Shown: positions 1 to 31,603 of the stretch, one piece after another | How the letters are laid out: each line of letters begins with the position of its first letter | How positions within the stretch are numbered: the stretch's first letter is position 1 | Source of the DNA: Candidatus Babelota bacterium | GTDB taxonomy: Bacteria > Babelota > Babeliae > Babelales > Chromulinivoraceae | Direction of reading: 5' to 3' | Length of the DNA stretch: 64,000 bases | NCBI GenBank assembly: GCA_026389065.1 | Contig: JAPLIP010000036.1 | Span: 815-64,814, forward strand | The notes under the pieces: model-generated | Seen by the model: only the letters and a program-made list of their open reading frames with translations | What the model was told of the DNA's origin: nothing | The model's database searches: none | Made by a program: the position numbers and the translations under genes

Positions 1-2
1 CT

Positions 3-1166
3 TTGCAATGCCTGAAAAACAATTTAAGCGCATCGCAATGTTCAAACGTTACTATTTGTGAAAAACCAGTAAAGCAAACAAGCGATCATGTTGTTTTTGG
101 GCCAAGAGAAAACGCTCTTAATCTATCTACTTCACATGTAAAAAAGGAATCAGACAATATAAATGATTACAGCATTCAAGCCACAACTTTTAAACAATTA
201 ATATATGATTTTGTATATGAAAACGATGCAATAGAAAATAAAAAAATATCATTTATTAAGTGCGACATTGAAGGCGGCGAAGAGAGCATTCTCGAAGACC
301 TGCTGCATTTTGCTTATAACAATAAAGCAAAGGCGTATATTTCATTTCATTTAGATTGGTGGGAAAATAAAAACATTGCCGAATTCGAATATTTATTTAA
401 ATTTTTTAAAACAAGCTGCCCAAGTCTTAACATTGCTGACTATATTAAAAAAAATCCTTTCACTTCTATCCTCTTTGAGCCGTTGAGCGATGCGGGAACT
501 TTAATAAAAAAGAATATGCCAATTGTAATTATTGGATATAATCAACTTACCTATATTAAGCATATGGTTTCTCAATTAGAAAAATACACGACCGATATAA
601 TCATTATAGACAACAATAGCAGCTACGAGCCATTGTTAAATTACTATGCAAATGATTTCAAGTACACACTTCTAAGGCAAAAAATTAATCATGGACATCG
701 CATTATTGCAAATCGATTTATACAAAGTGTAATTGGTGATATTCATATAATGACAGATCCAGACTTAAAATTTAACATTAATCTACCCAATGATTTTATT
801 AATATTTTGGTGGCCCTATCAAATCACTTTAAGGCTCATAAAGTTGGCTTTGCATTGCACATTAACTCTGACCAAATAAGAACAGACGTCTTCTGTAATG
901 GCTGCACTATTAAAAAATGGGAGAGTCAATTCTGGAAAACAAGATTAATCTACCCATTAAATTACTCCTTAGAGCTATACAAAGCTCCAATCGATACTAC
1001 TTTTTGTTTAGTTAACCACAAGTTTTATCTTGGCTACAATATAAGAGTTGCGGGAAACTATACCTGCCTACATCTTCCATGGCTCAAAGACTTTCAGAAT
1101 CATATGCCATCTGAAGAATATGAAGCATATTTAAAAAACAACATATCTTCTACATGGATTAAATAA
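3..1166 (+). CDS. Partial (5' end outside window) two-domain sugar-modifying enzyme: FkbM-type methyltransferase C-terminal part fused to a GT2-like glycosyltransferase domain
   Basis: ORF is open to the window edge. 'FIKCDIEGGEESILEDLL' resembles the FkbM-family methyltransferase core. 'MPIVIIGYNQLTYIKHMV...DIIIIDNNSSYEPL' resembles the N-terminal region of family-2 glycosyltransferases. Confidence 0.5.
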   Translation: MQCLKNNLSASQCSNVTICEKPVKQTSDHVVFGPRENALNLSTSHVKKESDNINDYSIQATTFKQLIYDFVYENDAIENKKISFIKCDIEGGEESILEDLLHFAYNNKAKAYISFHLDWWENKNIAEFEYLFKFFKTSCPSLNIADYIKKNPFTSILFEPLSDAGTLIKKNMPIVIIGYNQLTYIKHMVSQLEKYTTDIIIIDNNSSYEPLLNYYANDFKYTLLRQKINHGHRIIANRFIQSVIGDIHIMTDPDLKFNINLPNDFINILVALSNHFKAHKVGFALHINSDQIRTDVFCNGCTIKKWESQFWKTRLIYPLNYSLELYKAPIDTTFCLVNHKFYLGYNIRVAGNYTCLHLPWLKDFQNHMPSEEYEAYLKNNISSTWIK

Positions 1167-1214
1167 TATTTACAAAGCCATTAATTTAAACAAAAACTTT
1201 TAGGATTTTAAACA

Positions 1215-2360
1215 ATGTCACAAAAAAATTACACCAAAATATTATTAATCTTTTTAACTAGTTTTTCTCACTTAAAAATTAATTGTTGGTGGTTCGATAT
1301 CCTTCCAATAAAACAAATCATTCAAGAAAATCCATCAATTAAATATACAAAATGTTTTGATCCTGTTGATTTTAATTATGCAGAGTTTCCCTTGTCTTTG
1401 AATCAGTCGTGGCATCCAAACAAGGGAAGATTCGATGAAACATTTGTCATAACCATTCCAAACGGAACCCTACAATCAAAAAATGGATTTACTGTCATAA
1501 ATAATCACTTTATCGATGAAATGATTTGGAAAAAATTTATGCACAACCTCCAACTTGTAAAACAATATAACTATAAGCCACAATACTTTGCGAAACGAGT
1601 TGCGGTCATTACGCAGCCTGCATACGGAAATTATTTCCATTGGCTGACAGAAGTACTTTGCAGATTAGCCCTTTTAGAAATAAGCGGCGAGCCATATGAT
1701 TATATTTACACCCCGCAAGACAGAGCTTACATAAAAGGTAGTTTAGATCTTTGGGGAATCCCACAAGAAAAAATACTTACGCCTTCAAACGATGATACCT
1801 ACTTGCAAGCAAAAGAGATTATAATTCCATCTCTTGTCTCAAATAGCAGCTTAAATAGTATTTATTTTTCTTGTTATGTGCAGCCGCACCTTATCAAATA
1901 TGTTATAAATAAACTGCTTGCTGCGGCAAAAGAATTTCCATCTGAGCACGAAAAAAGTAAACGCATTTTTATTTCAAGAAAAGATTCTCCACAAAGAAAA
2001 CTTTTAAACGAAGATGATGTGTTTGCATTGCTAAAGCCTCATGGCTTTGTGCGCTATGAACTTGAGCATTTATCCGTAACTCAACAAATTTTATTATTTC
2101 ACAATGCAGAAATTGTTATTTCACCACAAGGTACTGGCCTGGCAAACTGTATATTTTGTACACCCAAAACTCAGATTATAGAACTTTTCCAAGGGCTGAA
2201 TGATTGTACTTTTTGGTATTTATCACAAGAGCTTGGTTTAAATTATACGCCCATTAAAACAATAGAATTTTCACCGAATTACTATTCCGGATGGAGTGAT
2301 AACACAAGTATGCCGCTCGATATTATTCAAAAAATGATAGGTGATTTAAATATTGATTAA
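1215..2360 (+). CDS. Glycosyltransferase family 61 / DUF563 protein (paralog 1 of 4)
   Basis: Family hallmarks 'NYFHWLTEVLCRLALL' and 'RIFISRKDSPQRKLLNEDDVFALLKPHGFVRYELEHLSVTQQILLFHNAEIVISPQGTGLANCIFC'. Hydrophobic N-terminus. Confidence 0.75.
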   Translation: MSQKNYTKILLIFLTSFSHLKINCWWFDILPIKQIIQENPSIKYTKCFDPVDFNYAEFPLSLNQSWHPNKGRFDETFVITIPNGTLQSKNGFTVINNHFIDEMIWKKFMHNLQLVKQYNYKPQYFAKRVAVITQPAYGNYFHWLTEVLCRLALLEISGEPYDYIYTPQDRAYIKGSLDLWGIPQEKILTPSNDDTYLQAKEIIIPSLVSNSSLNSIYFSCYVQPHLIKYVINKLLAAAKEFPSEHEKSKRIFISRKDSPQRKLLNEDDVFALLKPHGFVRYELEHLSVTQQILLFHNAEIVISPQGTGLANCIFCTPKTQIIELFQGLNDCTFWYLSQELGLNYTPIKTIEFSPNYYSGWSDNTSMPLDIIQKMIGDLNID

Positions 2361-3573
2361 GGCTTTTAAAGATACTATTTTACAATTTATATATAAAGCT
2401 GAGGCCACCTTGAACATTAAAACAATAGCTTGCTTTTTATTCAGCATAACAATCTGGTCAAATATTTTTCCAGTAATTGAAGATGAATTTGCACAAAAAG
2501 ATAAAGTAGAATCTTTATATGATTTTTTAAAAACTTCCAATAATGCTTTAACCACAGAAGAAGGGATATTAATTAAAAATGAAATATCAACAGTTGTTAT
2601 TATGTGCCCAGCGCTAGTTACTGGGGGCCCCGAAAACCTATGTCAAATTTCTTTAGAATTAAAAAAATTAGGGTTTAACGTTTATCTGCTTTGGTTCATA
2701 AGTGAGTCAATGATTAAAAGAAAATATCAAAATAGCTCATGGTATCTTTGTGGCAATAGTGACGACCTTACACCAAATATATACAAAGCTGAATACGAAA
2801 TAGAGCACCTAAAAAATGACGTAATATTAGACAAGTCTACTATGATAATTCTACCAGAAGGCATGTGTGATTTTTTACCATTTTTTAATGGTGCCTCAAA
2901 AATGATCGCATGGCTTTCTATAAATAATATGCATGGATTTGATAGGTCAAATACTTGCAGAGACCTAATAGATAAAAAGAGCCTACGTTTGCTAGACTGT
3001 TCTCATGCCGCACAAGCTCCTTGGATACAAAAAATATTAAGCTCGTGGGGAGCGAAGTCTTTTTTGCTTGGTGATTATATTAATAAATCTTATTTCAACG
3101 CTTCACCTGTTGCAGCCAAAGAAAATTGCATTGCGTACTATCCATCGAAAGGACGGCACCTTGGAGAGTTATTCACTCAAAACAATCCTATGTATAAATA
3201 TATTCGTCTTCAAAATTTAAACTCTTTTGGAATGCTTTGGGCTCTAGATACATCAAAAGTTTATATAGACTTTGGACACTTTCCAGGCAAAGACAGAATT
3301 CCACGTGAGGCATTGCTTAGGGGTTGTATTATTTTTATTCACAATCAAGGTTGCGCAACAGATTATGAATCATTTCCAGTCGACGATTATTTTAGATTTT
3401 CAGATACAGATGTAATTGATGGTACTCTTGAAGCTAAGATACGAAATGCCTTGGATAATTATGAAGATTTGTACGCAAAGCAGGAATTAATTCTAAACTC
3501 CGTAAAACAAGAATATTTTAGTTTTTCTAAACAGGTTTCACAAATTTTTGGTTCGCCAAAAAGACAATTTTAA
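2353..3573 (+). CDS. Hypothetical protein, possibly a GT-B fold glycosyltransferase; start codon uncertain (TTG at 2353 overlaps the upstream stop)
   Basis: Long ORF in a glycan gene cluster. 'VVIMCPALVTGGPENLCQISLELKKLGFNVYLLW' resembles the N-terminal GGxE/xxLAxxLxxxG motif of GT4-like enzymes. N-terminal hydrophobic segment. Confidence 0.4.
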   Translation: MIKAFKDTILQFIYKAEATLNIKTIACFLFSITIWSNIFPVIEDEFAQKDKVESLYDFLKTSNNALTTEEGILIKNEISTVVIMCPALVTGGPENLCQISLELKKLGFNVYLLWFISESMIKRKYQNSSWYLCGNSDDLTPNIYKAEYEIEHLKNDVILDKSTMIILPEGMCDFLPFFNGASKMIAWLSINNMHGFDRSNTCRDLIDKKSLRLLDCSHAAQAPWIQKILSSWGAKSFLLGDYINKSYFNASPVAAKENCIAYYPSKGRHLGELFTQNNPMYKYIRLQNLNSFGMLWALDTSKVYIDFGHFPGKDRIPREALLRGCIIFIHNQGCATDYESFPVDDYFRFSDTDVIDGTLEAKIRNALDNYEDLYAKQELILNSVKQEYFSFSKQVSQIFGSPKRQF

Positions 3574-3751
3574 CACTTAAGGAATAAAAACAAAACATGT
3601 TATAAATTACAATTGTGCATCAAATAAATTTAACCCAAAGTATTATATTTTATTACTAATACAAAGGATAACAGATGTTCTTTATGCCGCTTTTTTATTA
3701 CTATGCCCTGCCCTCCATGCAGATTTAAGCAAAGATCTTTATTTAGATCTT

Positions 3752-4546
3752 ATGAAAAAATGTTTAATTAATTCTATATATCAAGACACTGCATATGCCA
3801 GCCAAAACCATAGCAACCCATATCAAGAAAAAGTTCGCGAAAATGGCCTTGATTGGCCAGATGCAGCACATACAATGATCGGCCTGCATAGGTTAAATAA
3901 TTTACAATTTTGTGTTGAAGATGTGCTACAAAATAATATACCTGGAGATTTAATAGAAACAGGCGTATGGAGAGGTGGTGCTAGTATATTTATGAGATCA
4001 ATTTTAAAAGCATATGAAAATACTGAAAAAAAAGTTTTCGTTGCTGATTCTTTTGAAGGAATGCCAAAGGTAAATACCGAGCTCTATCCAGATGATAAAG
4101 ATTTTGCAATTTTAACTAACTACAACAATGTTTTAGCGATTCCTTTACACCAGGTTCAATATAATTTTAGTCTTTATGGGCTGCTAGAAAGCCAAGTTGT
4201 TTTTTAAAGGGATGGTTCAAAGATACTCTTCCTAATGCGCCAATGGAAAAACTAGCGGTTATGAGACTTGATGGTGACTACTACGAATCAACAATGGATG
4301 CTCTTACTAGCCTATACCCAAAGCTATCAATTGGTGGATGATGGTGACTACTACGAATCAACAATGGATGCTCTTACTAGCCTATACCCAAAGCTATCAA
4401 TTGGTGGATGGGTAATTATTGATGATTACAATATCCCGTGTTGCGCTAAAGCAGTACATGATTTTAGAAACAAATTTAATATTACTGACGAGCTATGTAA
4501 AACAGCGGATAATATAGGCGCTTTTTGGAAGCGAACAAAAGAATAA
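3752..4546 (+). pseudogene. TylF/MycF-type (macrocin-O-methyltransferase family) sugar O-methyltransferase, disrupted by a T-run frameshift (about 4200-4207) and a 70-bp tandem duplication (4271-4410)
   Basis: Family motifs are split over frames. Frame 2 has 'LYLDLMKKCLINSIY...LIETGVWRGGASIFMR...VFVADSFEGMP'. Frame 1 has '[45 protein letters not shown]' followed by a stop. Frame 2 then has '...GGWVIIDDYNIPCCAKAVHDF'. Conserved residues ('DLSKDLYLDL') continue upstream of the 3752 ATG. Confidence 0.8.
4271..4410. repeat. Perfect direct tandem duplication, 2 x 70 bp (4271-4340 and 4341-4410)
   Basis: The string atggtgactactacgaatcaacaatggatgctcttactagcctatacccaaagctatcaattggtggatg occurs twice back to back. 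70 is not a multiple of 3. Confidence 0.97.
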
Positions 4547-4627
4547 TTTATTTCATGTAGTAAATAAAGAAATGGAATTGCTATAAAAATTAGCAATTCC
4601 ATTTCTTTTCAATTCTTATTGATTCTT

Positions 4628-5788
4628 TTACAGCTCAGGATTCTGTACTAAAAACTCTTTAACTTTTTCCAAAGATAACGGAACTGGCGCTGTCCATGGT
4701 CCATGATGAACTTCAAGACCAGGAGAATCATCGATAGCGCTATACTTTAATCCAAAAATTTCACCAACATAAAAGAATGTAGCCTCAACCATTTTTTGTG
4801 TAATTTCTATGTAATGAGTTCCTGGCTTACAAAACATAATATTTGTACTACCTGATCCCAAAAACGAAACTATTGTTTTTGCGTTATTAAATAATGAAAT
4901 TTTTTCTGCAACAGACAGCCTAGCTAATTCGTATCTTTTAAATCCAAGTGGCTCAAATAAAGCAAACACTTCATCTTCATTTGGGATTGCTCTTTTTCCA
5001 CCAGCATCTTTTCTTGAAATAAATATTTTTTCTGAACGCTCAGTATCAAGCTTTAAAGCTTCAACCCCAGCTAAAATTTTATTGTGAATATGTTTCATTA
5101 AAAAATCTACATAGTGATTTACGAGCCAAGAAGGTGGTACCTTACATCCAGATACGGACGTTGGCATAATAATAACATCTGCATGTATGCACCCAGTCGT
5201 TACCATCGGTATAATTTTTGATCTATCTATTCCCCAAAGATCTAATGATTCTTGCATAAATTTTTCATAGTAAGGAATGCACAAGTAGTCATACTCAACG
5301 CCATAAACTTCAAGCAATGCTAGCTGGCTAAGTATCTCAAAAAACCAAAGTCCATAGCAATAAGGGTACAAACGAGAAACAATTGCAACACGACCTGAAA
5401 CTTTCAAAATATTTGATGGCGCTTCTTGATCAATAAAATCTTGGTTGTTAAAAAAATTTAATCCACCCATTTGAGTTTCTTTAACAAAAGAATCGTTTAC
5501 ATAAACATATCCTGTTTTATCAAAAAGAGCTGTCCCTTGAGGAACCTCTAGAATAAACATATCAACATGCTCACCTTGCGACGGAAAATAGTTAACATGA
5601 TCCTGATACAGTGGAAACGGAGCATGATTAAAAGAATAGTTACTTGTGCATTGCACATAACTTGACTGCGGAAACTCTTTTACAAAATCTGACAATGACC
5701 TTTGATAAATCCGTGATGCTTGTAAAAATGTGCTTACAAAACAAATAAAGCTCACAAATAAAATATTACGCACAAACTTCATCAACAA
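4628..5788 (-). CDS. Glycosyltransferase family 61 / DUF563 protein (paralog 2), N-terminal signal anchor
   Basis: 'YCYGLWFFEILSQLALL' and 'KIFISRKDAGGKRAIPNEDEVFALFEPLGFKRYELARLSVAEKISLFNNAKTIVSFLGSGSTNIMFC'. Hydrophobic N-terminus 'ILFVSFICFVSTFLQA'. Confidence 0.75.
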   Translation of the reverse strand: MLMKFVRNILFVSFICFVSTFLQASRIYQRSLSDFVKEFPQSSYVQCTSNYSFNHAPFPLYQDHVNYFPSQGEHVDMFILEVPQGTALFDKTGYVYVNDSFVKETQMGGLNFFNNQDFIDQEAPSNILKVSGRVAIVSRLYPYCYGLWFFEILSQLALLEVYGVEYDYLCIPYYEKFMQESLDLWGIDRSKIIPMVTTGCIHADVIIMPTSVSGCKVPPSWLVNHYVDFLMKHIHNKILAGVEALKLDTERSEKIFISRKDAGGKRAIPNEDEVFALFEPLGFKRYELARLSVAEKISLFNNAKTIVSFLGSGSTNIMFCKPGTHYIEITQKMVEATFFYVGEIFGLKYSAIDDSPGLEVHHGPWTAPVPLSLEKVKEFLVQNPEL

Positions 5789-5883
5789 ATTCCTTTTTCA
5801 TTTAAAATAAATCTATTCATTTTTTTAATTATTTTTTGCTACAAATTAAGCCAAAGATCTTTTGTCTCTTTTTATTATTAATA

Positions 5884-7050
5884 TTATAAATCAGGGTGCT
5901 CAACTAAAAATTTTTCAATTTTGTGCAAAGGGAATGGCTCTGGAGACGCCCAGATACCACCACCATTATCTACAAAAGTAGAATCATTAATAAAGCTATA
6001 TTTTAATTTACATGTGTCAGAGACAAAGAAAAATGTAGCATCAACCATTTTTTGAGTAATCTCTACATAGTTAGTTCCAGCCTTGCAAAATAAAATATTT
6101 GCAGCTCCAGATCCAACAAATGAAATTACTGTTTTTGCATTATTAAATAGTAAAATCTGCTGAGATACCGACAAATGCTCAAGCTCATATCTAACAAAGC
6201 CATATGGCTTAAATAGTTCAAATACTTCATCTTCATTTAACACAGATCTTTTTCCCTTAGCTCCCTTACGAGAAATAAATATCTTTTCTGGAAAATTATA
6301 AGACTTTTCTGATAAAGAATTTACACCATCAATCATTTTATTTCGAACATACATCAATAAAAAATCATGATAATAATTGCAAGAGACGCGAACTCCTGGC
6401 TTATCTTGAGATATTGCTGTTGCCATTATTACAGAGTCAGCTTGTATAGTAGCACCATAAACAATTGGTACAATTTTTGATCGATCAATACCCCAAATAT
6501 CTAATGATTGCTGCATAAATTTTGTATAATAAGGAATACACAAATAATCATATTCTATATTATTAATCTCAAGAAGTGCCAGCTGACCAAGCACATCAAA
6601 TATCCAATGGCCATAGCAATATGGATATAAATGAGAAACAATGGCAACTCGACCTGGAATTTTTGTAATTCTTGAAGGGTTTTTTCTATCAACAAAATTA
6701 CTTTTATGAAAAGAGCTTAAATTTTTAATTTGAGTTTCTTTAATAAAAGAATCGTTGATGTAAACATATCCTGAAACATCAAACAACACAGAAGCCTTTG
6801 AGGCCTCTAAAAGAAAAATGTCAGCATGCTCACCTTGTGATGGAAAAAATTTAGAATCCTCTGGATACAGTGGAAAAGGAGCATGATTAAAAGAATAGTT
6901 ATTTGTACATTGCAGATAACTTGACTGCGGAAACTCTTTTACAAACTCTGACAAAGACCTTTGATAAATCCGTGATGCTTGTAAAAATGTGCTTACGAAG
7001 CAAATAAGACTTAGTATCCATGTGTTAACAATTCTTTTCACGTACTCCAA
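5884..7050 (-). CDS. Glycosyltransferase family 61 / DUF563 protein (paralog 3), close tandem duplicate of 4628-5788
   Basis: Same motifs ('YCYGHWIFDVLGQLALL', 'KIFISRKGAKGKRSVLNEDEVFELFKPYGFVRYELEHLSVSQQILLFNNAKTVISFVGSGAANILFC'). N-terminal ~55 aa are nearly identical to paralog 2. Confidence 0.75.
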   Translation of the reverse strand: MEYVKRIVNTWILSLICFVSTFLQASRIYQRSLSEFVKEFPQSSYLQCTNNYSFNHAPFPLYPEDSKFFPSQGEHADIFLLEASKASVLFDVSGYVYINDSFIKETQIKNLSSFHKSNFVDRKNPSRITKIPGRVAIVSHLYPYCYGHWIFDVLGQLALLEINNIEYDYLCIPYYTKFMQQSLDIWGIDRSKIVPIVYGATIQADSVIMATAISQDKPGVRVSCNYYHDFLLMYVRNKMIDGVNSLSEKSYNFPEKIFISRKGAKGKRSVLNEDEVFELFKPYGFVRYELEHLSVSQQILLFNNAKTVISFVGSGAANILFCKAGTNYVEITQKMVDATFFFVSDTCKLKYSFINDSTFVDNGGGIWASPEPFPLHKIEKFLVEHPDL

Positions 7051-7072
7051 CCTTTTTAGCTAAAAAATTAAC

Positions 7073-8242
7073 TTAATATGATATTTCATTTACATGTAGG
7101 GATATAAAGTTTTTAATAATATCTACTGGAACGATAGTGCTATCGGCCACGTGGCCACGACTTGTAAATTCAGTTTTTAAACCAAAATAATTACATTTCA
7201 TATCTTGTGCAAGATTGCAAAAATGAGCATCGTATAATTTTTGAAAAATTTCGATAATCATGGTATTTGGTTTGCAAAATATAATATTTGCAAGTGCTGA
7301 TCCATGAGCGCCAACAATTACGTCTGCTCCATTAAATAAAACAGCCTGTTCAAGGAGTGACATTTTACTAAGGCAGTAACGCTTAAATCCCTTTTCTTCA
7401 AACAGTACAAAAATCTCATCTTCATTTACTATTGACCTAGTAAATCCATCTTTTCTAGAAATAAAAACTTTTTTTGAAAAATTATAGTTTGTTTCAATAT
7501 TTTTCACCTCTGGTAAAAACTTAGACCTAATATTATCTGTCATCCAATATGGCCAATATGCAGTTGCTGGATACCAATCATAAACTGGATCAGTTGCACA
7601 AACATCTCTTCGTATTGCCATAGATGGAACGATCAATTCATCTGCCTGAATGCATTGATCTTCCCCTGTGCACTCTATAATTTTTTCCAATGGAATGCCA
7701 TATAACTCATATGTTTCTTTCATATATGGTGCATACTTTGGAGCAAACAGCCAATCATATTCAATCCCTGATTCTTGCAATATTATTAATCTTGGTAGCA
7801 CGTCATTAAACCAATGAGAAAAGACTTTATGTAGCGACGTTGTAATTACAGCAACCCTGCCTGATATTTTTGTCACTTTATTCAAATCTGTTTTTTTAGC
7901 TAAAAAATCATTGACCTGCGCACCAAATGGAACCAGTTGGTTAAAAAAATCTTTGACTATGTGATTATCGATTTTGATCATCCCAAAATCAGAGCAAACT
8001 ATTCCCTTTGGAATTGTCACTACAAAAGTCTCAGATAAAATTCCTTCTATCGGTTGAGCCTCATTTGTAGACGTAGAAACGGACAATTTTTCATAACAAA
8101 ACTTTAATGGATCATGGTGTTTAATATACGAAATATCTTTTCTAGATAGCATCACGTCATGAAGTGATGCAAAAGAAATGTCTTGGGCTTTTAATGAAAT
8201 AACAGATGAGAATACTGACAATAACAAAGTTATTTTTTTCAC
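7073..8242 (-). CDS. Glycosyltransferase family 61 / DUF563 protein (paralog 4), signal peptide
   Basis: 'KVFSHWFNDVLPRLIIL' and 'KVFISRKDGFTRSIVNEDEIFVLFEEKGFKRYCLSKMSLLEQAVLFNGADVIVGAHGSALANIIFC'. N-terminus 'MKKITLLLSVFSSVISLKA'. Confidence 0.75.
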   Translation of the reverse strand: MKKITLLLSVFSSVISLKAQDISFASLHDVMLSRKDISYIKHHDPLKFCYEKLSVSTSTNEAQPIEGILSETFVVTIPKGIVCSDFGMIKIDNHIVKDFFNQLVPFGAQVNDFLAKKTDLNKVTKISGRVAVITTSLHKVFSHWFNDVLPRLIILQESGIEYDWLFAPKYAPYMKETYELYGIPLEKIIECTGEDQCIQADELIVPSMAIRRDVCATDPVYDWYPATAYWPYWMTDNIRSKFLPEVKNIETNYNFSKKVFISRKDGFTRSIVNEDEIFVLFEEKGFKRYCLSKMSLLEQAVLFNGADVIVGAHGSALANIIFCKPNTMIIEIFQKLYDAHFCNLAQDMKCNYFGLKTEFTSRGHVADSTIVPVDIIKNFISLHVNEISY

Positions 8243-8407
8243 TTACTTTACTCTTTTTTTTAAACTAAAAACTTAATCAATCAATAGTAAAGAAAGCGCG
8301 AATTAATGTCAAAATATGAATGATTTTATAATTTGATTGAACTGTTGCAAAATCTGGATAAAAATAACAATAATAATCATTTTTATTTAAAGCTTAGAGA
8401 GGAAAAA

Positions 8408-10528
8408 ATGAGTGATAAAAAACAAGAAAACCAATATGAAATCTTAGATACATTTTGCCAAAACATTACCAAGTTAGCACAGCAAGGCAAGCTTGATCCG
8501 GTTATCGGGCGCCATGAAGAAATAAGAAGAGTTATTCAAATTCTTTCACGCAGAACAAAAAGCAATCCTGTGCTCATCGGCGACCCAGGCGTTGGAAAAA
8601 CTGCAATAGTTGAAGGAATTGCGCAAAGAATAATTAATAACGATGTGCCAGAAAGTTTAAAAAATAGCGTAATTTATGCTCTAGATATGGGATCTTTAAT
8701 GGCTGGAACAAAGTTCCAAGGAGAATTCGAAGAACGCATCAAAGGAATTTTAAAAGCCATAGAAGAATCACAAGGCGGAGTGATTTTATTTATCGATGAG
8801 CTTCACATGCTTGTTGGCGCTGGATCATCTGGCGGCGGAATGGATGCTTCAAATTTACTAAAGCCTGCTCTTGCTCGCGGAAAGCTTCATTGCATTGGCG
8901 CAACAACAATTAAAGAATATAAAAAATATATTGAAAAAGATGCTGCGCTTGAACGTCGCTTCCAAAAAGTTTTAATTGATGAACCTTCAATTGAAGATGC
9001 TATTTCTATTTTGCGTGGACTAAAAGACAAATATGAACTGCACCATGGTATTAAAATCAAGGATGCTGCGCTCGTTCAGGCTGTGCAACTTTCTGCAAAA
9101 AACATACCTGATAGATTTTTACCAGATAAAGCAATTGATTTAGTTGATGAAGCTGCTTCAATGGTAAAAATGGCAATTGAATCTAAACCAGAAAAAATTG
9201 ACCAAATGGAGCGAAAAATCAGGCAGCTTGAAATTGAAAAAGTTGCCCTCGAAAAAGAAAAAGATAATAAAGCATCACAAGATCGATTAAAAGATTTAAG
9301 CCAAGAACTATCAGATCTTAAAAAAGAACATAAATTACTTTTAGATCAATGGAAGTCTGAAAGAGAGCCCCTAGAAAAAATCAATACCATAAAAGAGCAA
9401 ATCGAGATTGCAACTTATGAATTTATGCAGGCTGAGCGCGTTGGAAACTTTGCTCGAGCATCAGAATTAAAATATGGAAAAATTGTACAGCTAGAAAAAG
9501 AACTCCAAAGCCAATATCAAAAAATACAAAATAACGGCTCACACATGCTCAAAGAAGAAGTAAACGAAGAAGATATTGCAAAAGTTTTATCACGCCTGAC
9601 TGGAATTCCTGTTGAAAAATTACAGGCAAGTGAGTCAAAAAAACTTCTTGAAATGGAAGACACTTTAAAGCAGCGAGTAATTGGTCAAGATGGAGCTCTA
9701 AAAAAGATTGCTCACGCAATTCAGGTACATCGCGCAGGACTTACCGACCCACACAAACCGATTGGATCGTTTTTATTTCTCGGGCCAACAGGCGTTGGAA
9801 AAACAGAAATAGCAAAAAGCTTAGCTGACTATTTATTTAACGATGAGCACAAACTTATCCGCATAGATATGTCTGAGTATATGGAAAAACATTCTGTCTC
9901 TCGACTCATCGGGTCACCTCCTGGATATGTTGGACATGAGGAAGGTGGGCAGCTTACAGAAGCAGTGAGACGAAGCCCTTACAGCATTATACTTTTTGAT
10001 GAAATTGAAAAAGCGCATCCAGAAGTTTTTAATATTTTTTTACAAATCCTTGATGATGGCAGACTGACAGATGGCCAAGGCAGAACCATTAATTTTAAAA
10101 ACTGCGTTATTATCATGACATCAAATATTGGATCTGATTTAATTTTACAATCAAAAACTGTTGATGAAAAAGTACAAAAGGAAATAGAAAAACAACTGCA
10201 TAAAATATTTAGACCCGAATTTTTAAATAGAATTGATGACATTGTTTTCTTTAACATGCTTGATCAAAAAGTTATTAGCAATATTGCAAAATCTCACCTT
10301 CAAGCATTTAAGCAACGCTTGTTAGATCGTGGAATTCAAGCATCATTTTCTGAAAAAGCCCTTGAGTTTGTAGCCGAGCATGGATTTGAGCAAGAGTTTG
10401 GAGCTCGACCACTAAAACGAGCTATTCACCAATACATCGTTGTACCCGCTTCACAATATGTACTCGAACATCCAAGCGTCAAAGAAATGAATTTTGACCT
10501 ACACGGTGATAAAATAATTATCAATTAA
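8408..10528 (+). CDS. clpB: ClpB-type AAA+ disaggregase lacking the canonical N-terminal domain
   Basis: Two AAA modules ('[13 protein letters not shown]', '[15 protein letters not shown]'), a long coiled-coil middle domain and '[10 protein letters not shown]'-like '[13 protein letters not shown]'. Likely start is ATG 8408, preceded by agagaggaaaaa. The motif '[19 protein letters not shown]' lies only ~30 aa from that start. Confidence 0.9.
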
Positions 10529-11223
10529 CTTTTTTCAACAAGGCTTTGTTTTTCTATGTGTGCATCAAAGCCTTGTTGAATTTTTCTTACGCATGAGATA
10601 ACTGACATTTTGCCCGTGTTTACGCAGCAATCATACTGACTTAAAACAGAGGCTATAAAAACCTTTGTACGATTGCCTGAAAAAAAATCTTTTTTAATTT
10701 TATTTAGAGCTCTTTTGTTAGAAGTAGCATTTTCTAAATCAGATTTACGCAACACATCGATAGACTCTTTTTCGCTTAGAGTAGTTCTAAATTTGTTGTA
10801 ATACATAGCAAGCACGCTTTTTACTTTTCTGTGATCACGATCATTTGTCCCCTTATTGCGCTTAGCAACATGGTCTATTAAAGCAACTGGTGGACAATAA
10901 GTTATAACTACAAACTCTTGAGCCTTCGATTTATCAAACACAAATTGTGGTGAAATGGTATCAACAATAACATTGTATCCACTGTCTATATCCTTACTAA
11001 TTTGCCTCCACATGGCCAAATTTGTTGGAGATACTCCACGCGACTGAGAAAAATCAAACATATCAATGCCTACGACCTTCCACTTACCTGGCAAAGCCTT
11101 GCACAATTCACGAGAAACGGATGATTTCCCAGCAGACGAACCACCATATAAAATTATTAATGAACTCTTGGCAAAAATCGTGCCAACATGAAAGACAAAT
11201 AATAAAAACATGCTTTTTTTCAT
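10525..11223 (-). CDS. Chloramphenicol-phosphotransferase-like (CPT family) P-loop kinase with N-terminal signal peptide
   Basis: 'SLIILYGGSSAGKSSVSREL' matches the CPT-family P-loop 'IILNGGSSAGKS'. N-terminus is 'MKKSMFLLFVFHVGTIFA'. The stop shares a TTAA with the convergent clpB stop. Confidence 0.55.
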   Translation of the reverse strand: MKKSMFLLFVFHVGTIFAKSSLIILYGGSSAGKSSVSRELCKALPGKWKVVGIDMFDFSQSRGVSPTNLAMWRQISKDIDSGYNVIVDTISPQFVFDKSKAQEFVVITYCPPVALIDHVAKRNKGTNDRDHRKVKSVLAMYYNKFRTTLSEKESIDVLRKSDLENATSNKRALNKIKKDFFSGNRTKVFIASVLSQYDCCVNTGKMSVISCVRKIQQGFDAHIEKQSLVEKS

Positions 11224-11333
11224 GACTTACCCCTAAATCTAAAAAACCCTACCTAGAATAGTCATATATCAAAACAGAAGTCTGAAAATCAAGACTTAGG
11301 GGCAATTTACGTACTTTGATCAAACAGCATTAA

Positions 11334-11369
11334 TAAAAAAGCCCCGAGATTAACTTCGGGGCTTTTTGT
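11334..11369 (-). terminator. Rho-independent terminator downstream of aspS (hairpin flanked by A-run and T-run, potentially bidirectional)
   Basis: gccccga-gattaact-tcggggc (11341-11362) with A7 on one side and T5 on the other. Confidence 0.7.
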
Positions 11370-11381
11370 TTTTTTATTTTT

Positions 11382-13157
11382 TTAAGACTTAGCTTCTTGT
11401 TTTTTTGGCAAAAACTTCAGGCCATAAATCTCTAAATCTTTTTCTTCAACCTGTCCAGGCGCTTGCATCATAGCATCAAGGCCTTTTTGGGTTTTAGGAA
11501 ATGCAATAACATCTCGTATAGATTTTGAATTAGTAAGAAGCATCATGATGCGATCCAATCCAAGCGCCAGGCCTCCATGTGGAGGGCAACCAAGCTGCAA
11601 CGCTTCAAGCAAGCAACCGAATTTTTCTTGCATCTTTGCCTCATCAAGGCCCAAGATTGTAAACATTTTCTTTTGAAAATCAATATTGCTAATTCGAATC
11701 GAACCACCACCAAGCTCATAGCCATTCAAAACTACGTCATATGCACGAGCTTTGATGTCGCCAAAGTCTTGTGTCTCCCAGCCCGGCTGAGGGCTTGTGA
11801 ATGGATGATGCACTGAATTCCAACGCTTTGCATCCTGATCATACTCAAACAATGGAAAATCAGTTACCCAACAAAAACGAAATTCTGCATGATTTATCAA
11901 ATTAAGTTCAGCAGCGAGTGCGCAACGCAAACGACCCAAAAGAGTCCATGCTTCTAAATATTTTCCAGCAATCAAATAAATCGTATCGCCCGCTTTTGCT
12001 TGAGGCATAATTGTTTTAACAAGTTGCAAAAAGTTTTCTGGTAAAAACTTTGACACAGGTGATTCAGCTTCGCCTTGATCATTAAATCGAATCCACAAAA
12101 GGCCCTTTGCTCCAAGGTGCATAGCTTTTGTAACCCATCCATCAAGCTCAGAGCGCGTGAACTGTTTTTGTGAAACTAAAATTCCACCAACTTTGCCACC
12201 AGCTTGCAAAACTGTTTGTAAAAACTTTAATTCAGTTTTTTCAAACAATGAGCTGCAATCTTGAATTTTTAAATCGTAACGCAAATCAGGTTTATCAGAA
12301 CCATAGTCTGCAAAAGCTTTATCATAGGTAATTCTTTGAAAATTTTTTGGGATATCCAGATTCATGCTTTGTTTAAAAACATGACCTAGCAATCTTTCGA
12401 TTGTTTGCATAACATCTTCTTCTTGGACAAATGACATCTCTACGTCAATTTGTGTAAATTCAGGCTGGCGATCTGCGCGCAAATCTTCATCTCTAAAGCA
12501 GCGAGCAATCTGCACATATCTATCAACGCCCGATGCCATTAAAAGCTGTTTATACATTTGAGGTGATTGCGGAAGTGCGTAAACGCTACGTTCATGAACG
12601 CGAGATGGAACTAAATATTCCCGAGCACCTTCAGGGGTATTTTTTGTCAAAATAGGTGTCTCAACGTCCAAAAAGCCTTCTTTTCTAAAAAACTCTCTGA
12701 TAAAAAAAGAAACATCACTTCGCAAGCGCAAGTTTTGAAACATTTTTTCACGACGAAGATCAAGATATCGATACTGCAATCTTAATTCTTCTTCGACATG
12801 ATCAGCCTCTTCCATCATAAACGGAAGAGCAACTGCTTTGTTAAAAATATATAAAGACGCAACTTGAAGCTCGTAAGCGCCCGTTTTTAAATCTTTATTT
12901 ACTAAATTGCTATCGCGCGCAACAACTTTTCCAGTGACTGAAATAACATATTCGCTACGCAGGCCGTGTGCTGCCTCATGAGCTGCTTTGTCAAAATCAG
13001 AATTAAAAATAACTTGCATAATTCCTTCACGATCACGCAAATCAATAAAAATTAATCCGCCATGATCACGACGTCTATGAACCCAGCCAAAAAGTGTAAC
13101 TTCTTGACCAACATGCTGTTGCTCTATAAAACCACAATAAGTAGTTCTTTTTTCCAT
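11382..13157 (-). CDS. aspS: Aspartate--tRNA ligase
   Basis: Full-length class IIb synthetase signature: 'GWVHRRRDHGGLIFIDLRD', 'FRDEDLRADRQPEFTQID', 'GGGSIRI', 'PPHGGLALGLDR'. Confidence 0.95.
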   Translation of the reverse strand: MEKRTTYCGFIEQQHVGQEVTLFGWVHRRRDHGGLIFIDLRDREGIMQVIFNSDFDKAAHEAAHGLRSEYVISVTGKVVARDSNLVNKDLKTGAYELQVASLYIFNKAVALPFMMEEADHVEEELRLQYRYLDLRREKMFQNLRLRSDVSFFIREFFRKEGFLDVETPILTKNTPEGAREYLVPSRVHERSVYALPQSPQMYKQLLMASGVDRYVQIARCFRDEDLRADRQPEFTQIDVEMSFVQEEDVMQTIERLLGHVFKQSMNLDIPKNFQRITYDKAFADYGSDKPDLRYDLKIQDCSSLFEKTELKFLQTVLQAGGKVGGILVSQKQFTRSELDGWVTKAMHLGAKGLLWIRFNDQGEAESPVSKFLPENFLQLVKTIMPQAKAGDTIYLIAGKYLEAWTLLGRLRCALAAELNLINHAEFRFCWVTDFPLFEYDQDAKRWNSVHHPFTSPQPGWETQDFGDIKARAYDVVLNGYELGGGSIRISNIDFQKKMFTILGLDEAKMQEKFGCLLEALQLGCPPHGGLALGLDRIMMLLTNSKSIRDVIAFPKTQKGLDAMMQAPGQVEEKDLEIYGLKFLPKKQEAKS

Positions 13158-13199
13158 TATTTTTATCCAATCAATGCAATTATTTCAATAATTTAAATT

Positions 13200-15119
13200 T
13201 TACCAATTGTAAGTCATACCAACGTCAAGAATATATGCAGGGCTATTTCCTGTTGGAACGCCACCAATTAAAGTTCCACACATATCCGTATAATGTTGCC
13301 CAGGAAAGAAAAGTCCAAAATACGAATAGATATTAAATTCTTTATATATATCAGCTGAAAGTTTTGTTGTAACCTCAATCCCAAGCGAATTACTTGATGG
13401 CTGAAGCAATGCTGGAACTACAACAGCTCCAGAAAGAGGAGACAGCACCGCAGGCTTAACTACAAAGTTAGACACATCTGGCGACCAATATCCAATTACG
13501 TTTGGAGAAATTTTTACTTTATGATCACTCCAATTTTGAGGACTCCAATCAACAGCTCCACCAAAAAATATAATATTTGTAACTTCATCAATACTATCAG
13601 ATTGAAGAACGTGATTAAGGTTTTGATTTATAGTAATGGCGCTTGGATTTTTAACGTTAAAACGAGGAATCCCTTTGTTAAAAACAACAAGCTGAGTTAA
13701 GCGCTTACCAGAATAAACAGACTGCACAGGAATAAACCCTGTAAACTGTTGATTCATAAGTTGATCCGTTGTCAAAAGATTTGTATTAAGCTGTGGCCCA
13801 ATATATCCAGATGCGTATCCAGCACCAAGCGTAGCTACTAAGACTTTTTCGATGCATTCATACGAAGCATCACCCATTAAGAAAAACCCAGAAAGATTAA
13901 ATTGCTGTGCTGGTCTAAATCTATCAAATGCATTCCATAGCCCAGGAGCGATTTCCATTCCATTAAAGCTTGAGCCTTTACGAGAGCCTTTTACCGCAGC
14001 ACTGTTTGTTGATGTTACATAAGCAGACGTTGGGTTTTTTGTAATTGCAGGATCTTGTGTATAAATTTTTGTATACTGCTCTGAAATTGCACCAGTGGAA
14101 AGATTGTTTGCTAACTTTATTAAATTTCTATCCCACGGCTTAAGGCCTTGGCTTCCCTGGTTAAGAGCTCCTTCAAGCCCCCAGTTAAGTCGACCCTTTA
14201 CGCCCTCAATTGCACAACCATAGGTCGTTAACAAAGACTCCGCGTCTATTAAAAACTCAAGAGCTTGATCAGGACCCCGTAAGAAAACAATATATGGCTC
14301 AACAGACAATTTTTCTTTTGCTCCGTCAAGTAGCTTAACCATACTGCGCATCGCTGAAACATATGACTGGCCAGGCAATCCTCTTGCCAGGCATCCAGCC
14401 TCCAAGTCACCCTGTCTGACAGGCGCGCTATTGCTTCTGTATCCAAGCGTGTAATTTTGAAGAATTGCGGTATAAAAATCAACAACAAATCTTTCTGCTA
14501 TGGGATTTAAGCTTAGGCGCACAGCTGGAGCAAACTGATCAATAGAGTCTCCAGGAGAGAATCCCAAAAATCCACGGACTACATATGCAGCTCCAAGACT
14601 AATTCCACGACCAACCTCAAAAGGAATCAATCCAACCTGTAAATAGTTATCGTTTGGATAATCTAAATTTCCAAGAGCCATTTTTACCCAAGCTTCACGA
14701 GACCAAATTAAATGCTTGTCTGCAGACTTTCCCTTAACAGGAACAGGCACATCAACAACCATTGCCACAGAATCACCAACCTTAGCATCTGTTTCAAATC
14801 CCCATTTGTGACGAACCCGAAATGTTTCATGAAATAAAAGCCTAGGCTGCTCAACAGATCCGTGTAAGGCATCGATAGTAAAGTCAATTGTTGACCTTTC
14901 GTATGATGTGCAATCCCAAGGAATAGCGTTATTTAAAAATTGAGTGTTTTGAGCTCCAAAATATTCTTGAGTATATCTGCCCATACAACTAGCTGAAAAA
15001 TCATCTGTCTTATAAACCAAGCCCTTTGATAATTTTTGAGTAAATGGACTTAAATAACTAACGAAAAAAAATGATAAAATCAAAGACTTTATCGACAGAT
15101 GCAGAGTTGGGAATTTCAT
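13200..15119 (-). CDS. Putative outer-membrane beta-barrel protein (lineage-specific)
   Basis: Signal-peptide-like N-terminus, Gly/Ser/Asn/aromatic-rich alternating composition, and a C-terminal aromatic end '...VGMTYNW' typical of OMP barrels. No family recognised. Confidence 0.45.
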   Translation of the reverse strand: MKFPTLHLSIKSLILSFFFVSYLSPFTQKLSKGLVYKTDDFSASCMGRYTQEYFGAQNTQFLNNAIPWDCTSYERSTIDFTIDALHGSVEQPRLLFHETFRVRHKWGFETDAKVGDSVAMVVDVPVPVKGKSADKHLIWSREAWVKMALGNLDYPNDNYLQVGLIPFEVGRGISLGAAYVVRGFLGFSPGDSIDQFAPAVRLSLNPIAERFVVDFYTAILQNYTLGYRSNSAPVRQGDLEAGCLARGLPGQSYVSAMRSMVKLLDGAKEKLSVEPYIVFLRGPDQALEFLIDAESLLTTYGCAIEGVKGRLNWGLEGALNQGSQGLKPWDRNLIKLANNLSTGAISEQYTKIYTQDPAITKNPTSAYVTSTNSAAVKGSRKGSSFNGMEIAPGLWNAFDRFRPAQQFNLSGFFLMGDASYECIEKVLVATLGAGYASGYIGPQLNTNLLTTDQLMNQQFTGFIPVQSVYSGKRLTQLVVFNKGIPRFNVKNPSAITINQNLNHVLQSDSIDEVTNIIFFGGAVDWSPQNWSDHKVKISPNVIGYWSPDVSNFVVKPAVLSPLSGAVVVPALLQPSSNSLGIEVTTKLSADIYKEFNIYSYFGLFFPGQHYTDMCGTLIGGVPTGNSPAYILDVGMTYNW

Positions 15120-30781: not shown

Positions 30782-31603
30782 CTAAAAATTCCAGATTTCG
30801 TCCTGCCCATCTAGGTGAGATTTGATTTCAAATCCGCCTTCTTTTTTCAAGAACCAGAAGTTGCAAGCACCATAAACCGTTAGATTATTTTCTTGCGCAA
30901 ACTCTACCACAGCTTCTCTAACAGTTGTCAGTAGCCAGTCGTCTCCACAAACAATGCCGTGCTCGCCAGCAAGAGGGAAATACAAATACATATCCATTAA
31001 TACGCCTTCTGTTTCATGATCACCATCGATATAAATTAAGTCAAAATACTTAATGTTTTTTGTGATCGTTGAAACTGCATCTTGTGATTTTTGTTTTATT
31101 GGTGTGATTTTATTTTCTAGTCCGCTTGAAACAATATTGCTTAAAAACTGTTCATACATTCCTGCGAAATATGCCCAATCGTCAATGGCAAATAGATTTC
31201 CATTTTCTGGAAGAAGTGATCCAATGTGTCGTGTTGAAACACCAAAATAGGATCCAATTTCTACGACGTTAACGATGTCATTGTGCTCAAAAAGTTTGTG
31301 CATAAACGCAGCATTAAAATACATACCAAACGGATTGAAAGGAAGAACTTTTTTTAGTGTTGAGTATGGATGTGGAAGCGTTTGAATTTCTGATAAAGAT
31401 AGCGGCATGGCTGTGATGTTTTCAATATGTTTTTTGTAGTATGGAAAATATTTAATGTAATCTTCTTTTACGAAACGCTCTTTACCCCAGCTTGTTTCAT
31501 ATGAGACATTTGCGTCATTTCCATTGTATCCAATGTTATATGTATTGATTATGCTTGGAAGTGTAGATATTGATAGCATTATAAATAGGCTGCGACTTGT
31601 CAT
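30782..31603 (-). CDS. Class I SAM-dependent methyltransferase (Methyltransf_24/CmcI-like) with N-terminal signal/anchor
   Basis: 'VVEIGSYFGVSTRHIG' (SAM-binding G-x-G region), 'LFAIDDW', 'DLIYIDGDHETEGVLMD', 'GIVCGDDW'. Confidence 0.6.
   Translation of the reverse strand: MTSRSLFIMLSISTLPSIINTYNIGYNGNDANVSYETSWGKERFVKEDYIKYFPYYKKHIENITAMPLSLSEIQTLPHPYSTLKKVLPFNPFGMYFNAAFMHKLFEHNDIVNVVEIGSYFGVSTRHIGSLLPENGNLFAIDDWAYFAGMYEQFLSNIVSSGLENKITPIKQKSQDAVSTITKNIKYFDLIYIDGDHETEGVLMDMYLYFPLAGEHGIVCGDDWLLTTVREAVVEFAQENNLTVYGACNFWFLKKEGGFEIKSHLDGQDEIWNF

Follow-up and report, generated by a model that had tools for sequence, protein, structure and literature searches.

GT61 glycosyltransferases with signal-like N-termini in a glycan island of a Dependentiae bacterium

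The glycan island and its enzymes

We describe a cluster of glycan-modifying genes, four of them glycosyltransferases of family GT61 (DUF563, PF04577), at the start of a 64,000-nucleotide stretch of DNA from Candidatus Babelota bacterium (assembly GCA_026389065.1, contig JAPLIP010000036.1, positions 815 to 64,814), which is called the window below. The source is an 890-kb assembly in 68 contigs, 96% complete, which named homologues assign to the order Babeliales of the Dependentiae (TM6), and the window starts 814 nt into contig C12. The bacterium is a parasite of protists with a very small genome. The glycan island fills the first 8.2 kb of the window and holds seven open reading frames (ORFs), all of which had been listed by an initial annotation made from the sequence alone, with the TylF gene given as 3752-4546:

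1..1166 (ORF 3-1166), plus strand: FkbM-type methyltransferase/GT2 fusion, the 3' 387 codons; PF05050 and PF00535 at full length
1215..2360, plus strand: GT61a, a GT61/DUF563 GT-B glycosyltransferase of 381 aa; PF04577, E 4e-28
2353..3573, plus strand: GT4-like GT-B glycosyltransferase, 406 aa; from AlphaFold and Foldseek, Pfam blank
3677..4546, plus strand: TylF-type sugar O-methyltransferase pseudogene; PF05711 in two pieces
4628..5788, minus strand: GT61b, 386 aa, signal-like N-terminus; PF04577, E 9e-20
5884..7050, minus strand: GT61c, 388 aa, signal-like N-terminus; PF04577, E 1e-22
7073..8242, minus strand: GT61d, 389 aa, textbook signal peptide; PF04577, E 2e-27

Pfam and structure models both bear out the reading given there, of a sugar-modification island that combines GT61 paralogs with a GT-B enzyme, a fusion of FkbM and GT2, and a degraded TylF gene. 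The four GT61 genes, three of which are on the minus strand, score 71.7-98.7 bits against PF04577 (Pfam cut-off 27). GT61a, the sole GT61 copy to be modelled, gave an AlphaFold structure with a predicted local distance difference test score (pLDDT) of 95.3. Its 16 best Foldseek matches in the PDB are all POMGNT2 (E 1e-10 to 1e-9, template modelling (TM) score about 0.5), at 11-13% identity in the structural alignment. A beta-rich N-terminal segment at residues ~25-122 is an extra that is specific to the family, in which C47, C315 and C331 are also conserved.

The catalytic features of GT61 enzymes are an N-lobe NxxHxxxD motif, whose Asn binds uridine diphosphate (UDP) and whose His is the proposed base, and the C-lobe motifs RxxxRxxxN and HGAxxT (PMC13123520; bioRxiv 10.1101/2025.07.18.665579). 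R255, R261, N265 and E266 do not vary across 47 sequences or among the nine GT61 copies of this genome, with the spacing R-x5-R-x3-N, and in the family profile this donor motif aligns to that of EOGT and POMGNT2. The N-lobe His, known as H166 in POMGNT2, H248 in EOGT and H397 in SbXAT, is present in eight of the nine copies, an equivalence that comes from sequence alignment only; it is Leu in GT61b. Among the window copies GT61a alone has complete N..H...E and R..R..N motifs, and GT61d keeps both the N-lobe His and the His of the C-lobe HG. The conserved blocks of the initial annotation therefore stand in part: the FISR...R...NE block is found in all copies, the 'HW' is LW in GT61b, the 'RL' is QL in GT61b and GT61c, and the His of 'HG' (HGAxxT) occurs in the window only in GT61d (Q, L and V in the others) and in three of the nine copies genome-wide. 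The label 'eukaryote-type' fares worse, as the Asn of the N-R-R triad is found in just one of the four window copies, GT61a; it is Cys in GT61b and GT61c and Val in GT61d. According to the EOGT paper proteobacterial GT61 likewise lacks the N-lobe Asn, so its absence counts against that label and not against membership of GT61.

By Pfam match and donor motif, and in GT61a also by fold, the window copies are members of GT61, presumably inverting GT-B enzymes that use UDP-sugars. The mean identity between the paralogs is 48% in the donor lobe and 25% in the first part of the acceptor-side N-lobe. This fits the initial suggestion that the copies have diversified in acceptor specificity.

The ORF at 2353-3573, first described as a possible GT-B enzyme, gave no match in the Pfam search. 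Its AlphaFold model (pLDDT 90.5) has a GT-B fold, and the best Foldseek match in the PDB is a glucosyltransferase of Actinobacillus minor (8xsg, E 9e-9, TM score 0.59/0.69), followed by GT4 enzymes, which substantiates that description. A related enzyme of A. pleuropneumoniae extends N-linked glucose on proteins. We found 580 homologues of this ORF, one of them fused to TylF and others to GT2. A second GT4-like GT-B gene of the same genome lies on contig C21 (137-1144, minus strand; phmmer E 2e-93 to the ORF at 2353-3573).

As seen in the window, ORF 3-1166 has a GT2 match and a weak FkbM match. The full protein is 503 aa long, its gene beginning at contig position 469, 346 nt ahead of the window; at this length both domains exceed the Pfam cut-offs (PF05050 25.9 bits, cut-off 22.7; PF00535 28.0 bits, cut-off 23.3), as expected of the proposed fusion, and a signal-like stretch, YLAASLFIVLHIA, is found at the N-terminus. 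In the TylF gene the lesions confirm the earlier view of it as degraded and make it a pseudogene. The PF05711 match is split, with 3752-4207 covering profile positions 43-177 and 4268-4546 covering 200-264; an exact 70-nt tandem duplication (4269-4338/4339-4408) and a frame break near 4205 (4200-4207) are present, and stops appear when it is aligned to an intact TylF of a congener. A signal-like remnant at 3677-3721 lies upstream of it and the canonical start codon is absent. Intact TylF genes with signal peptides are located within the GT61 arrays of congeners.

Upstream of the window, where the initial annotation had proposed to look for export or initiation genes, the island continues off the 5' end of the contig, which opens with a truncated ORF, the TPR end of a GT2+TPR gene. 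The gene order of a close relative (L059) is uvrC, a Hexapep acetyltransferase, GT2+TPR, GT61, FkbM/GT2, GT61 and GT61, with the ortholog of the FkbM/GT2 gene in the same position. The island is rearranged relative to this one. The uvrC of the genome studied here lies on contig C29 beside two other GT61 genes, and C29 and C12 may be neighbours.

Distribution and ancestry of the GT61 family

The expansion goes well beyond the four-fold one that was first noted. Nine GT61 genes exceed the Pfam cut-off genome-wide, at 27-60% pairwise identity: four in the window, two on contig C40, two on C29 and one on C56. Those outside the window sit among housekeeping genes (murG, dciA, an M23 peptidase, cysK), and some adjoin large WD40-like proteins. 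In ten genomes of the same genus, of 0.8-1.6 Mb and most of them about 0.9 Mb, the copy numbers are 0, 0, 2, 3, 5, 5, 7, 9, 13 and 19. The single genome of a sister genus has nine copies in one tandem array, and three genomes of the third genus of the family have none. GT61 is present in only 30 of 261 Dependentiae genomes; in the rest of the phylum 21 genomes have it, as one copy each with two in one genome. GT61 in multiple copies (2-19 per genome) is a feature of the window's own family alone. At roughly 1-2% of the genes in otherwise shrinking genomes, the expansion is a clear marker of selection on function.

A profile search of 1.84 billion representative proteins recovered, at E values of 1e-3 or less, 28,915 members of the family, with only about 85 representatives that match this subfamily at full length. 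The full-length relatives (residues ~5-377, more than 320 bits) come from the Dependentiae and from four metagenome-assembled genomes (MAGs) of Chlamydiota with 1-2 copies each. One additional full-length match (L032) is from a 1.6-Mb MAG labelled Alphaproteobacteria.

Several other MAGs carry labels that look wrong, namely Saccharimonadales, Pseudomonadota and Epsilonproteobacteria (L018/L024, L019/L022/L026, L030 and L031). We rejected these as a sign of wide spread: by contig and coordinates L018/L024 match the Dependentiae genome G002, L019/L022/L026 match G005 and L030 matches G011, all of the window's own family, and L031 belongs to another family of the order. Two metagenomic proteins, P0306 (2102 aa) and P0310 (1230 aa), combine many TPR repeats with two GT61 domains, and in P0306 also with Methyltransf_24; against the Dependentiae profile the GT61 portion of both reaches about 340 bits. 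A single-copy GT61 from another Babeliales family (L058, genome G068, ~150-14260) lies in a cluster of enzyme families known above all from the Golgi: two GT47/RXYLT1-like enzymes, a GT14 'Branch', two GT4 and a PIG-L deacetylase, many with signal-like N-termini.

We built a quick maximum likelihood tree of 87 sequences, with several long branches and with support from the Shimodaira-Hasegawa-like approximate likelihood ratio test only; plant and amoebozoan GT61 were left out of it, as were the PDB fragments of EOGT and POMGNT2, which are too short. The copies of this genome occupy at least five subclades, each with orthologs from congeners, which indicates that most of the duplications are older than the species. 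GT61b and GT61c are recent in-paralogs (60% identity, support 99), and the sister group of GT61d is the array of the neighbouring genus, whose nine copies form one clade (support 99). The Chlamydiota and the single-copy Dependentiae sequences take an intermediate position, with the expansion on one side and the free-living and viral sequences on the other. Comparison of GT61a with two orthologs gives ratios of nonsynonymous to synonymous substitution rates (dN/dS) of 0.08 and 0.11, and the in-paralogous pair GT61b and GT61c gives 0.30. Judged by these ratios, selection on the GT61 genes is purifying and the genes are functional.

These results bear on the idea, raised in the initial annotation, that the genes came from a eukaryote. 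In its strongest form Golgi-type GT61 genes would have been taken recently from a eukaryotic host and would be drifting without a bacterial function, their type II anchors retained. Such an origin would agree with the facts that GT61 is best known from the endoplasmic reticulum and the Golgi, that POMGNT2 is the top structural match and that the TylF gene in the island is decaying. The sequence relationships point elsewhere. After the full-length relatives in Dependentiae and Chlamydiota, the next in line are free-living and viral DUF563 proteins, with 63-187 bits against the family profile, most of them covering only the C-terminal two-thirds or less; they come from Caulobacter, Paracoccus, Burkholderiales, cyanobacteria and Caldilineales and from two IMG/VR viral contigs. 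The PDB chains of two eukaryotic proteins that were compared with the profile match it over no more than 70-100 residues of the donor motif, with 36.6 bits for mouse EOGT and 20-23.5 bits for POMGNT2. The tree likewise places the Dependentiae and Chlamydiota copies beside bacterial sequences, orthologs are kept across congeners, the dN/dS values of 0.08-0.3 do not look like drift, and the GC content (0.32-0.33) is close to that of the rest of the genome (~0.35). In this comparison, with EOGT and POMGNT2 as the eukaryotic members, a recent transfer from a eukaryote is not supported, and we consider decaying eukaryotic imports highly improbable.

N-terminal segments of the island enzymes

The GT61 paralogs had first been credited with a hydrophobic anchor in a type II topology like that of Golgi enzymes. 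We assessed N-termini by inspection and with a home-made rule, looking for a positively charged start that leads into a hydrophobic stretch (about 7-15 residues in a typical Sec signal) and for small residues at -3/-1 in the polar end. All nine GT61 copies of the genome have a hydrophobic stretch of 6-17 residues and then a polar stretch with small residues at -3/-1. In eight of them 1-3 K/R residues lead the stretch (the C56 copy has none); GT61d, for example, begins with MKKITLLLSVFSSVISLKA, followed by QD. Type II anchors are about 20 residues long, and these N-termini look more like cleavable Sec signal peptides. In the GT61a model the putative signal is a separate helix (residues 3-19) that stands apart from the fold, in a first 30 residues of lower confidence (block means 73-83 vs 95 overall).

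The same pattern is found in 99 of 113 full-length GT61 homologues. No such segment is seen in 14 of 15 free-living DUF563 proteins or in either of two viral GT61 proteins. The enzyme at 2353-3573 has an additional N-terminal segment of about 80 aa with a hydrophobic helix, which is absent from its free-living homologues; those from Shewanella, Clostridium and Campylobacterales begin at the first Rossmann strand. Signal-like N-termini also occur on the TylF, FkbM/GT2 and GT-B enzymes of Dependentiae, and the Hexapep acetyltransferase and the GT2+TPR protein of the close relative are tagged as well. The signal-like segments are lineage-specific additions that arose in several unrelated enzyme families. 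All of these tagged families need cytoplasmic cofactors (UDP-sugars, S-adenosylmethionine (SAM) or acetyl-CoA), and they co-occur in variable arrays.

Two trivial sources of the pattern were considered. Mis-called start codons can be rejected for GT61a and for the C29 copy at 2404-3555, where alternative starts cannot remove the hydrophobic stretch (GT61a has no alternative start before codon 60). For the rest, the start-codon map and the purine-rich ribosome-binding sites that precede the upstream starts of GT61 genes make them unlikely. As to an indiscriminate rule, none of the 11 Pfam-confirmed cytoplasmic proteins of the window is flagged (ClpB, AspRS, IF-2, NusA, S1, ParA, EF-P, SHMT, AlaRS, Lon and AtpD), and four envelope proteins are (Skp/OmpH, a periplasmic binding protein, an ABC permease and ComEC), including both of the known periplasmic ones. 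The rule thus discriminates on these proteins, yet its genome-wide rate is 44%.

Some genes of the window outside the island have similar N-termini. The ORF at 10525-11223 (minus strand) is a P-loop kinase like chloramphenicol phosphotransferase (PF07931), with a signal-like MKKSMFLLFVFHVGTIFA directly before the Walker A motif; it would be another ATP-dependent enzyme with an export tag. An O-methyltransferase at 30782-31603 (minus strand; Methyltransf_24/Methyltransf_3) has a signal-like N-terminus, and a GT2 enzyme at 37502-38425 (minus strand) has a hydrophobic segment at residues ~22-40 that falls slightly below the signal threshold and may be membrane-anchored.

A possible glycosylation system outside the cytoplasm

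In bacteria, Leloir enzymes of the cytoplasm normally build a glycan on a lipid carrier, after which it is flipped outward, and enzymes beyond the inner membrane use lipid-linked donors. Genome-wide searches for such a pathway found no WbaP/PglC-type primer (Bac_transf, PF02397), no Wzy_C or O-antigen ligase (PF04932) and no LpxC, and the sole PF00953 member is MraY; MurJ is the one flippase-like gene that was seen in the window. We therefore rejected an O-antigen or capsule cluster. The initial annotation had likewise seen no Wzx/Wzy/Wzz, ABC exporter or initiating phosphoglycosyltransferase in the window, and its own possible counter-evidence, a different family for these ORFs or an O-antigen cluster with single-copy orthologs in relatives, did not turn up. 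The SAM synthetase MetK (PF02773) was not found in the genome either, though several SAM-dependent methyltransferases are encoded; SAM is presumably imported. Two secretins are encoded and offer a possible exit through the outer membrane. Another member of the Dependentiae, Chromulinavorax, is reported to have no lipopolysaccharide (LPS) genes, to carry signal peptides on 44% of its coding sequences, putative effectors included, and to make outer-membrane vesicles (Deeg et al. 2019, PMC6561590).

Export tags on enzymes that use nucleotide sugars and SAM point to a layout other than the usual one, the more so in a genome without LPS, SAM synthetase or a primer besides MraY. Our preferred reading, to which we give a probability of about 40%, is that the island of this obligate intracellular bacterium encodes part of a toolkit of exported enzymes, which would use host donors to assemble a methylated glycan beyond the cytoplasm, with exported proteins of the bacterium as the probable acceptors. 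The toolkit would comprise the GT61 paralogs, the GT4-like GT-B enzyme, the GT2/FkbM fusion, the GT2+TPR protein and TylF-type O-methyltransferases. Each enzyme would cross the inner membrane through Sec by means of its N-terminal signal peptide and would work in the periplasm, at the cell surface or, after release by secretins or vesicles, beyond the cell. There, host-derived UDP-sugars and SAM would be turned into a methylated oligosaccharide on protein acceptors, most likely exported or surface proteins of the bacterium itself; host metabolites would thus power the glycosylation. Duplication within the window's family would have kept the donor-binding C-lobe while the acceptor-binding N-lobe diverged, and this divergence may have led to different linkages or acceptors, with a gene content that varies between species.

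The gene neighbourhoods have something to say about the product. GT61, TylF and the GT-B enzyme recur together in arrays, and fusions join TPR with Methyltransf_24 and two GT61 domains, the GT-B enzyme with TylF, and the GT-B enzyme with GT2. The TPR modules hint at protein acceptors. Together with 8xsg as the best structural match of the GT-B enzyme, these points suggest a multi-step, protein-directed glycan.

Several points weigh against an exported toolkit. With 68 contigs, missing pathway genes could lie in gaps. A single NTP_transferase that looks like GalU is encoded, and UDP-GlcNAc is necessarily made for the peptidoglycan pathway, so cytoplasmic donors exist; nucleotide sugars, SAM and acetyl-CoA, moreover, are not known to be on hand in a bacterial periplasm. 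GT61b carries Leu at the proposed catalytic His of NxxH, and three of the four window copies are without the Asn of the N-R-R triad. The assignment to export comes from our home-made rule, which flags 44% of the ORFs of at least 150 aa genome-wide, or 31% when proteins with further membrane segments are set aside. This rate equals the figure for Chromulinavorax (PMC6561590); tags are so frequent that the prior for a tag is high, and a tag is no proof of export. Several GT61 copies, moreover, have possible alternative starts at codons 21-33, just past the hydrophobic stretch.

Some of these points would suit a more conventional arrangement, in which the N-terminal segments anchor the catalytic domains on the cytoplasmic face and an envelope glycan or glycoprotein is made from the cell's own UDP-Glc and UDP-GlcNAc and leaves by an unrecognised export route. 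GalU, MurJ and MraY are all present, bacterial DUF563 proteins are usually annotated as capsule enzymes, the helix of the enzyme at 2353-3573 is ~19-25 residues long and could be a true anchor, and with 44% of the proteome tagged the tags may not all mean export. The topology of the GT61 copies is harder to accommodate. K/R residues before the stretch would, by the positive-inside rule, leave the N-terminus inside and the catalytic domain outside, and 6-17 hydrophobic residues are too short for a stable span. Free-living homologues carry out the same chemistry without an anchor, and the genome-wide searches found no priming phosphoglycosyltransferase besides MraY, no Wzy or ligase and no LpxC. 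We regard synthesis on the cytoplasmic face as somewhat unlikely.

If the enzymes are exported, their targets might instead be those of the host, with each GT61 paralog secreted into the host cell and glycosylating a different protein or glycan there, an outcome comparable to that of Legionella Lgt/SetA, and a host arms race enlarging the family. The lineage-specific expansion (0-19 copies in ~0.9 Mb genomes), an acceptor lobe that diverges fastest, the presence of secretins and TPR-GT61 fusions that suggest protein substrates are all in keeping with effectors. Signal peptides mark putative effectors in Dependentiae (PMC6561590), and full-length relatives are confined to other protist-associated lineages such as the Chlamydiota. 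The company that the genes keep speaks for a different product, as tailoring enzymes travel with them (two O-methyltransferase types, an acetyltransferase, GT2 and GT4-like enzymes) and a multi-step glycan fits this better than the modification of host proteins with single sugars. Strong purifying selection on orthologs (dN/dS 0.08-0.11) gives no obvious sign of arms-race evolution, and there is no known path for Sec substrates over the host vacuole membrane. A set of host-directed effectors is therefore, in our view, distinctly unlikely.

Known systems offer partial parallels to an exported toolkit. Like the other members of CAZy GT61/PF04577, which include EOGT, POMGNT2, the plant xylan arabinosyl- and xylosyltransferases and bacterial DUF563, the Dependentiae copies have the Pfam match, the GT-B fold, the donor motif and, in eight of nine, a His that aligns with that of the N-lobe. 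Eukaryotic members also have a secretory-pathway signal at the N-terminus, as the Dependentiae copies appear to. Free-living bacterial GT61, in contrast, is signal-less and usually present as 1-2 copies in glycan clusters, whereas this genome has nine in 890 kb and the lipid-carrier machinery was not found in it. Legionella Lgt1-3, SetA and other secreted glycosyltransferase effectors are GT-A enzymes with a DxD motif that lack Sec signals, leave by type IV secretion and place a single sugar onto host proteins. They are similar in that they are paralogous, come from an amoeba-dwelling bacterium and use host UDP-sugars outside its own cytoplasm; the models of GT61a and of the enzyme at 2353-3573 are GT-B and not GT-A. 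Lst of Neisseria gonorrhoeae is an outer-membrane sialyltransferase that uses host cytidine monophosphate N-acetylneuraminic acid (CMP-Neu5Ac) and acts on lipooligosaccharide. It is likewise an extracytoplasmic transferase that decorates the bacterium's own surface with a host donor, but a single enzyme of a different family, where the Dependentiae have a multi-enzyme set with a family expansion. In Chlamydia trachomatis, secreted enzymes of glycogen metabolism, GlgA among them, draw on UDP-glucose of the host in the lumen of the inclusion (Gehre et al. 2016, PMC4829429). As in our proposal, these are Leloir-type GT-B enzymes of an obligate intracellular bacterium that are fed outside the cytoplasm by a host nucleotide sugar. 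They differ in their type III secretion and glycogen product, compared with Sec signals and a tailored methylated glycan, and their export is experimentally proven while that of the Dependentiae enzymes is predicted from sequence.

We also entertain a broader proposal, that protist-infecting Dependentiae and some environmental Chlamydiota carry out a Golgi-like, lipid-carrier-free glycosylation outside the cytoplasm, in which Sec-exported Leloir glycosyltransferases, O-methyltransferases and acetyltransferases work with host UDP-sugars, SAM and acetyl-CoA, and that the GT61 radiation (0-19 copies per ~0.9 Mb) gives rise to species-specific glycan coats. In this general form it is speculative and, on present evidence, unlikely. 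If true, it would explain how the Dependentiae, a widespread phylum of which only a few members are in culture, make or mask their surface within protists, and would extend the single documented case, the Chlamydia glycogen enzymes, to a general strategy. The GT61/DUF563 family is already known and the genes are annotated as such in public MAGs. Our literature search found no paper on a GT61 or glycosyltransferase expansion in Dependentiae/TM6, within a coverage that possibly misses key TM6 comparative-genomics papers. Three features appear to be undescribed in the literature searched: an expansion restricted to one lineage with genomes of ~0.9 Mb, export signals throughout the enzyme set, and the absence of carrier-lipid machinery. 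The expansion also supplies soluble candidate enzymes for bench work.

Glycan clusters of large viruses show a comparable mixture of genes. The 180-kb IMG/VR contig L015 encodes, at 3073-10532 and beside phoH, a nucleotide-sugar transferase, GT61, Methyltransf_24, an epimerase/dehydratase, a sulfotransferase, GT90 and a methyltransferase, so that here, as in the island, GT61 stands beside a methyltransferase and other glycosyltransferases. The viral GT61 proteins have no signal peptides, are about 30% identical and fall outside the symbiont clade. In the window the island is followed, 90 nt from the preceding gene, by a ClpB homologue of 731 aa (8333-10528, plus strand), which begins at about position 140 of the ClpB profile and is without the N-terminal substrate-binding domain.

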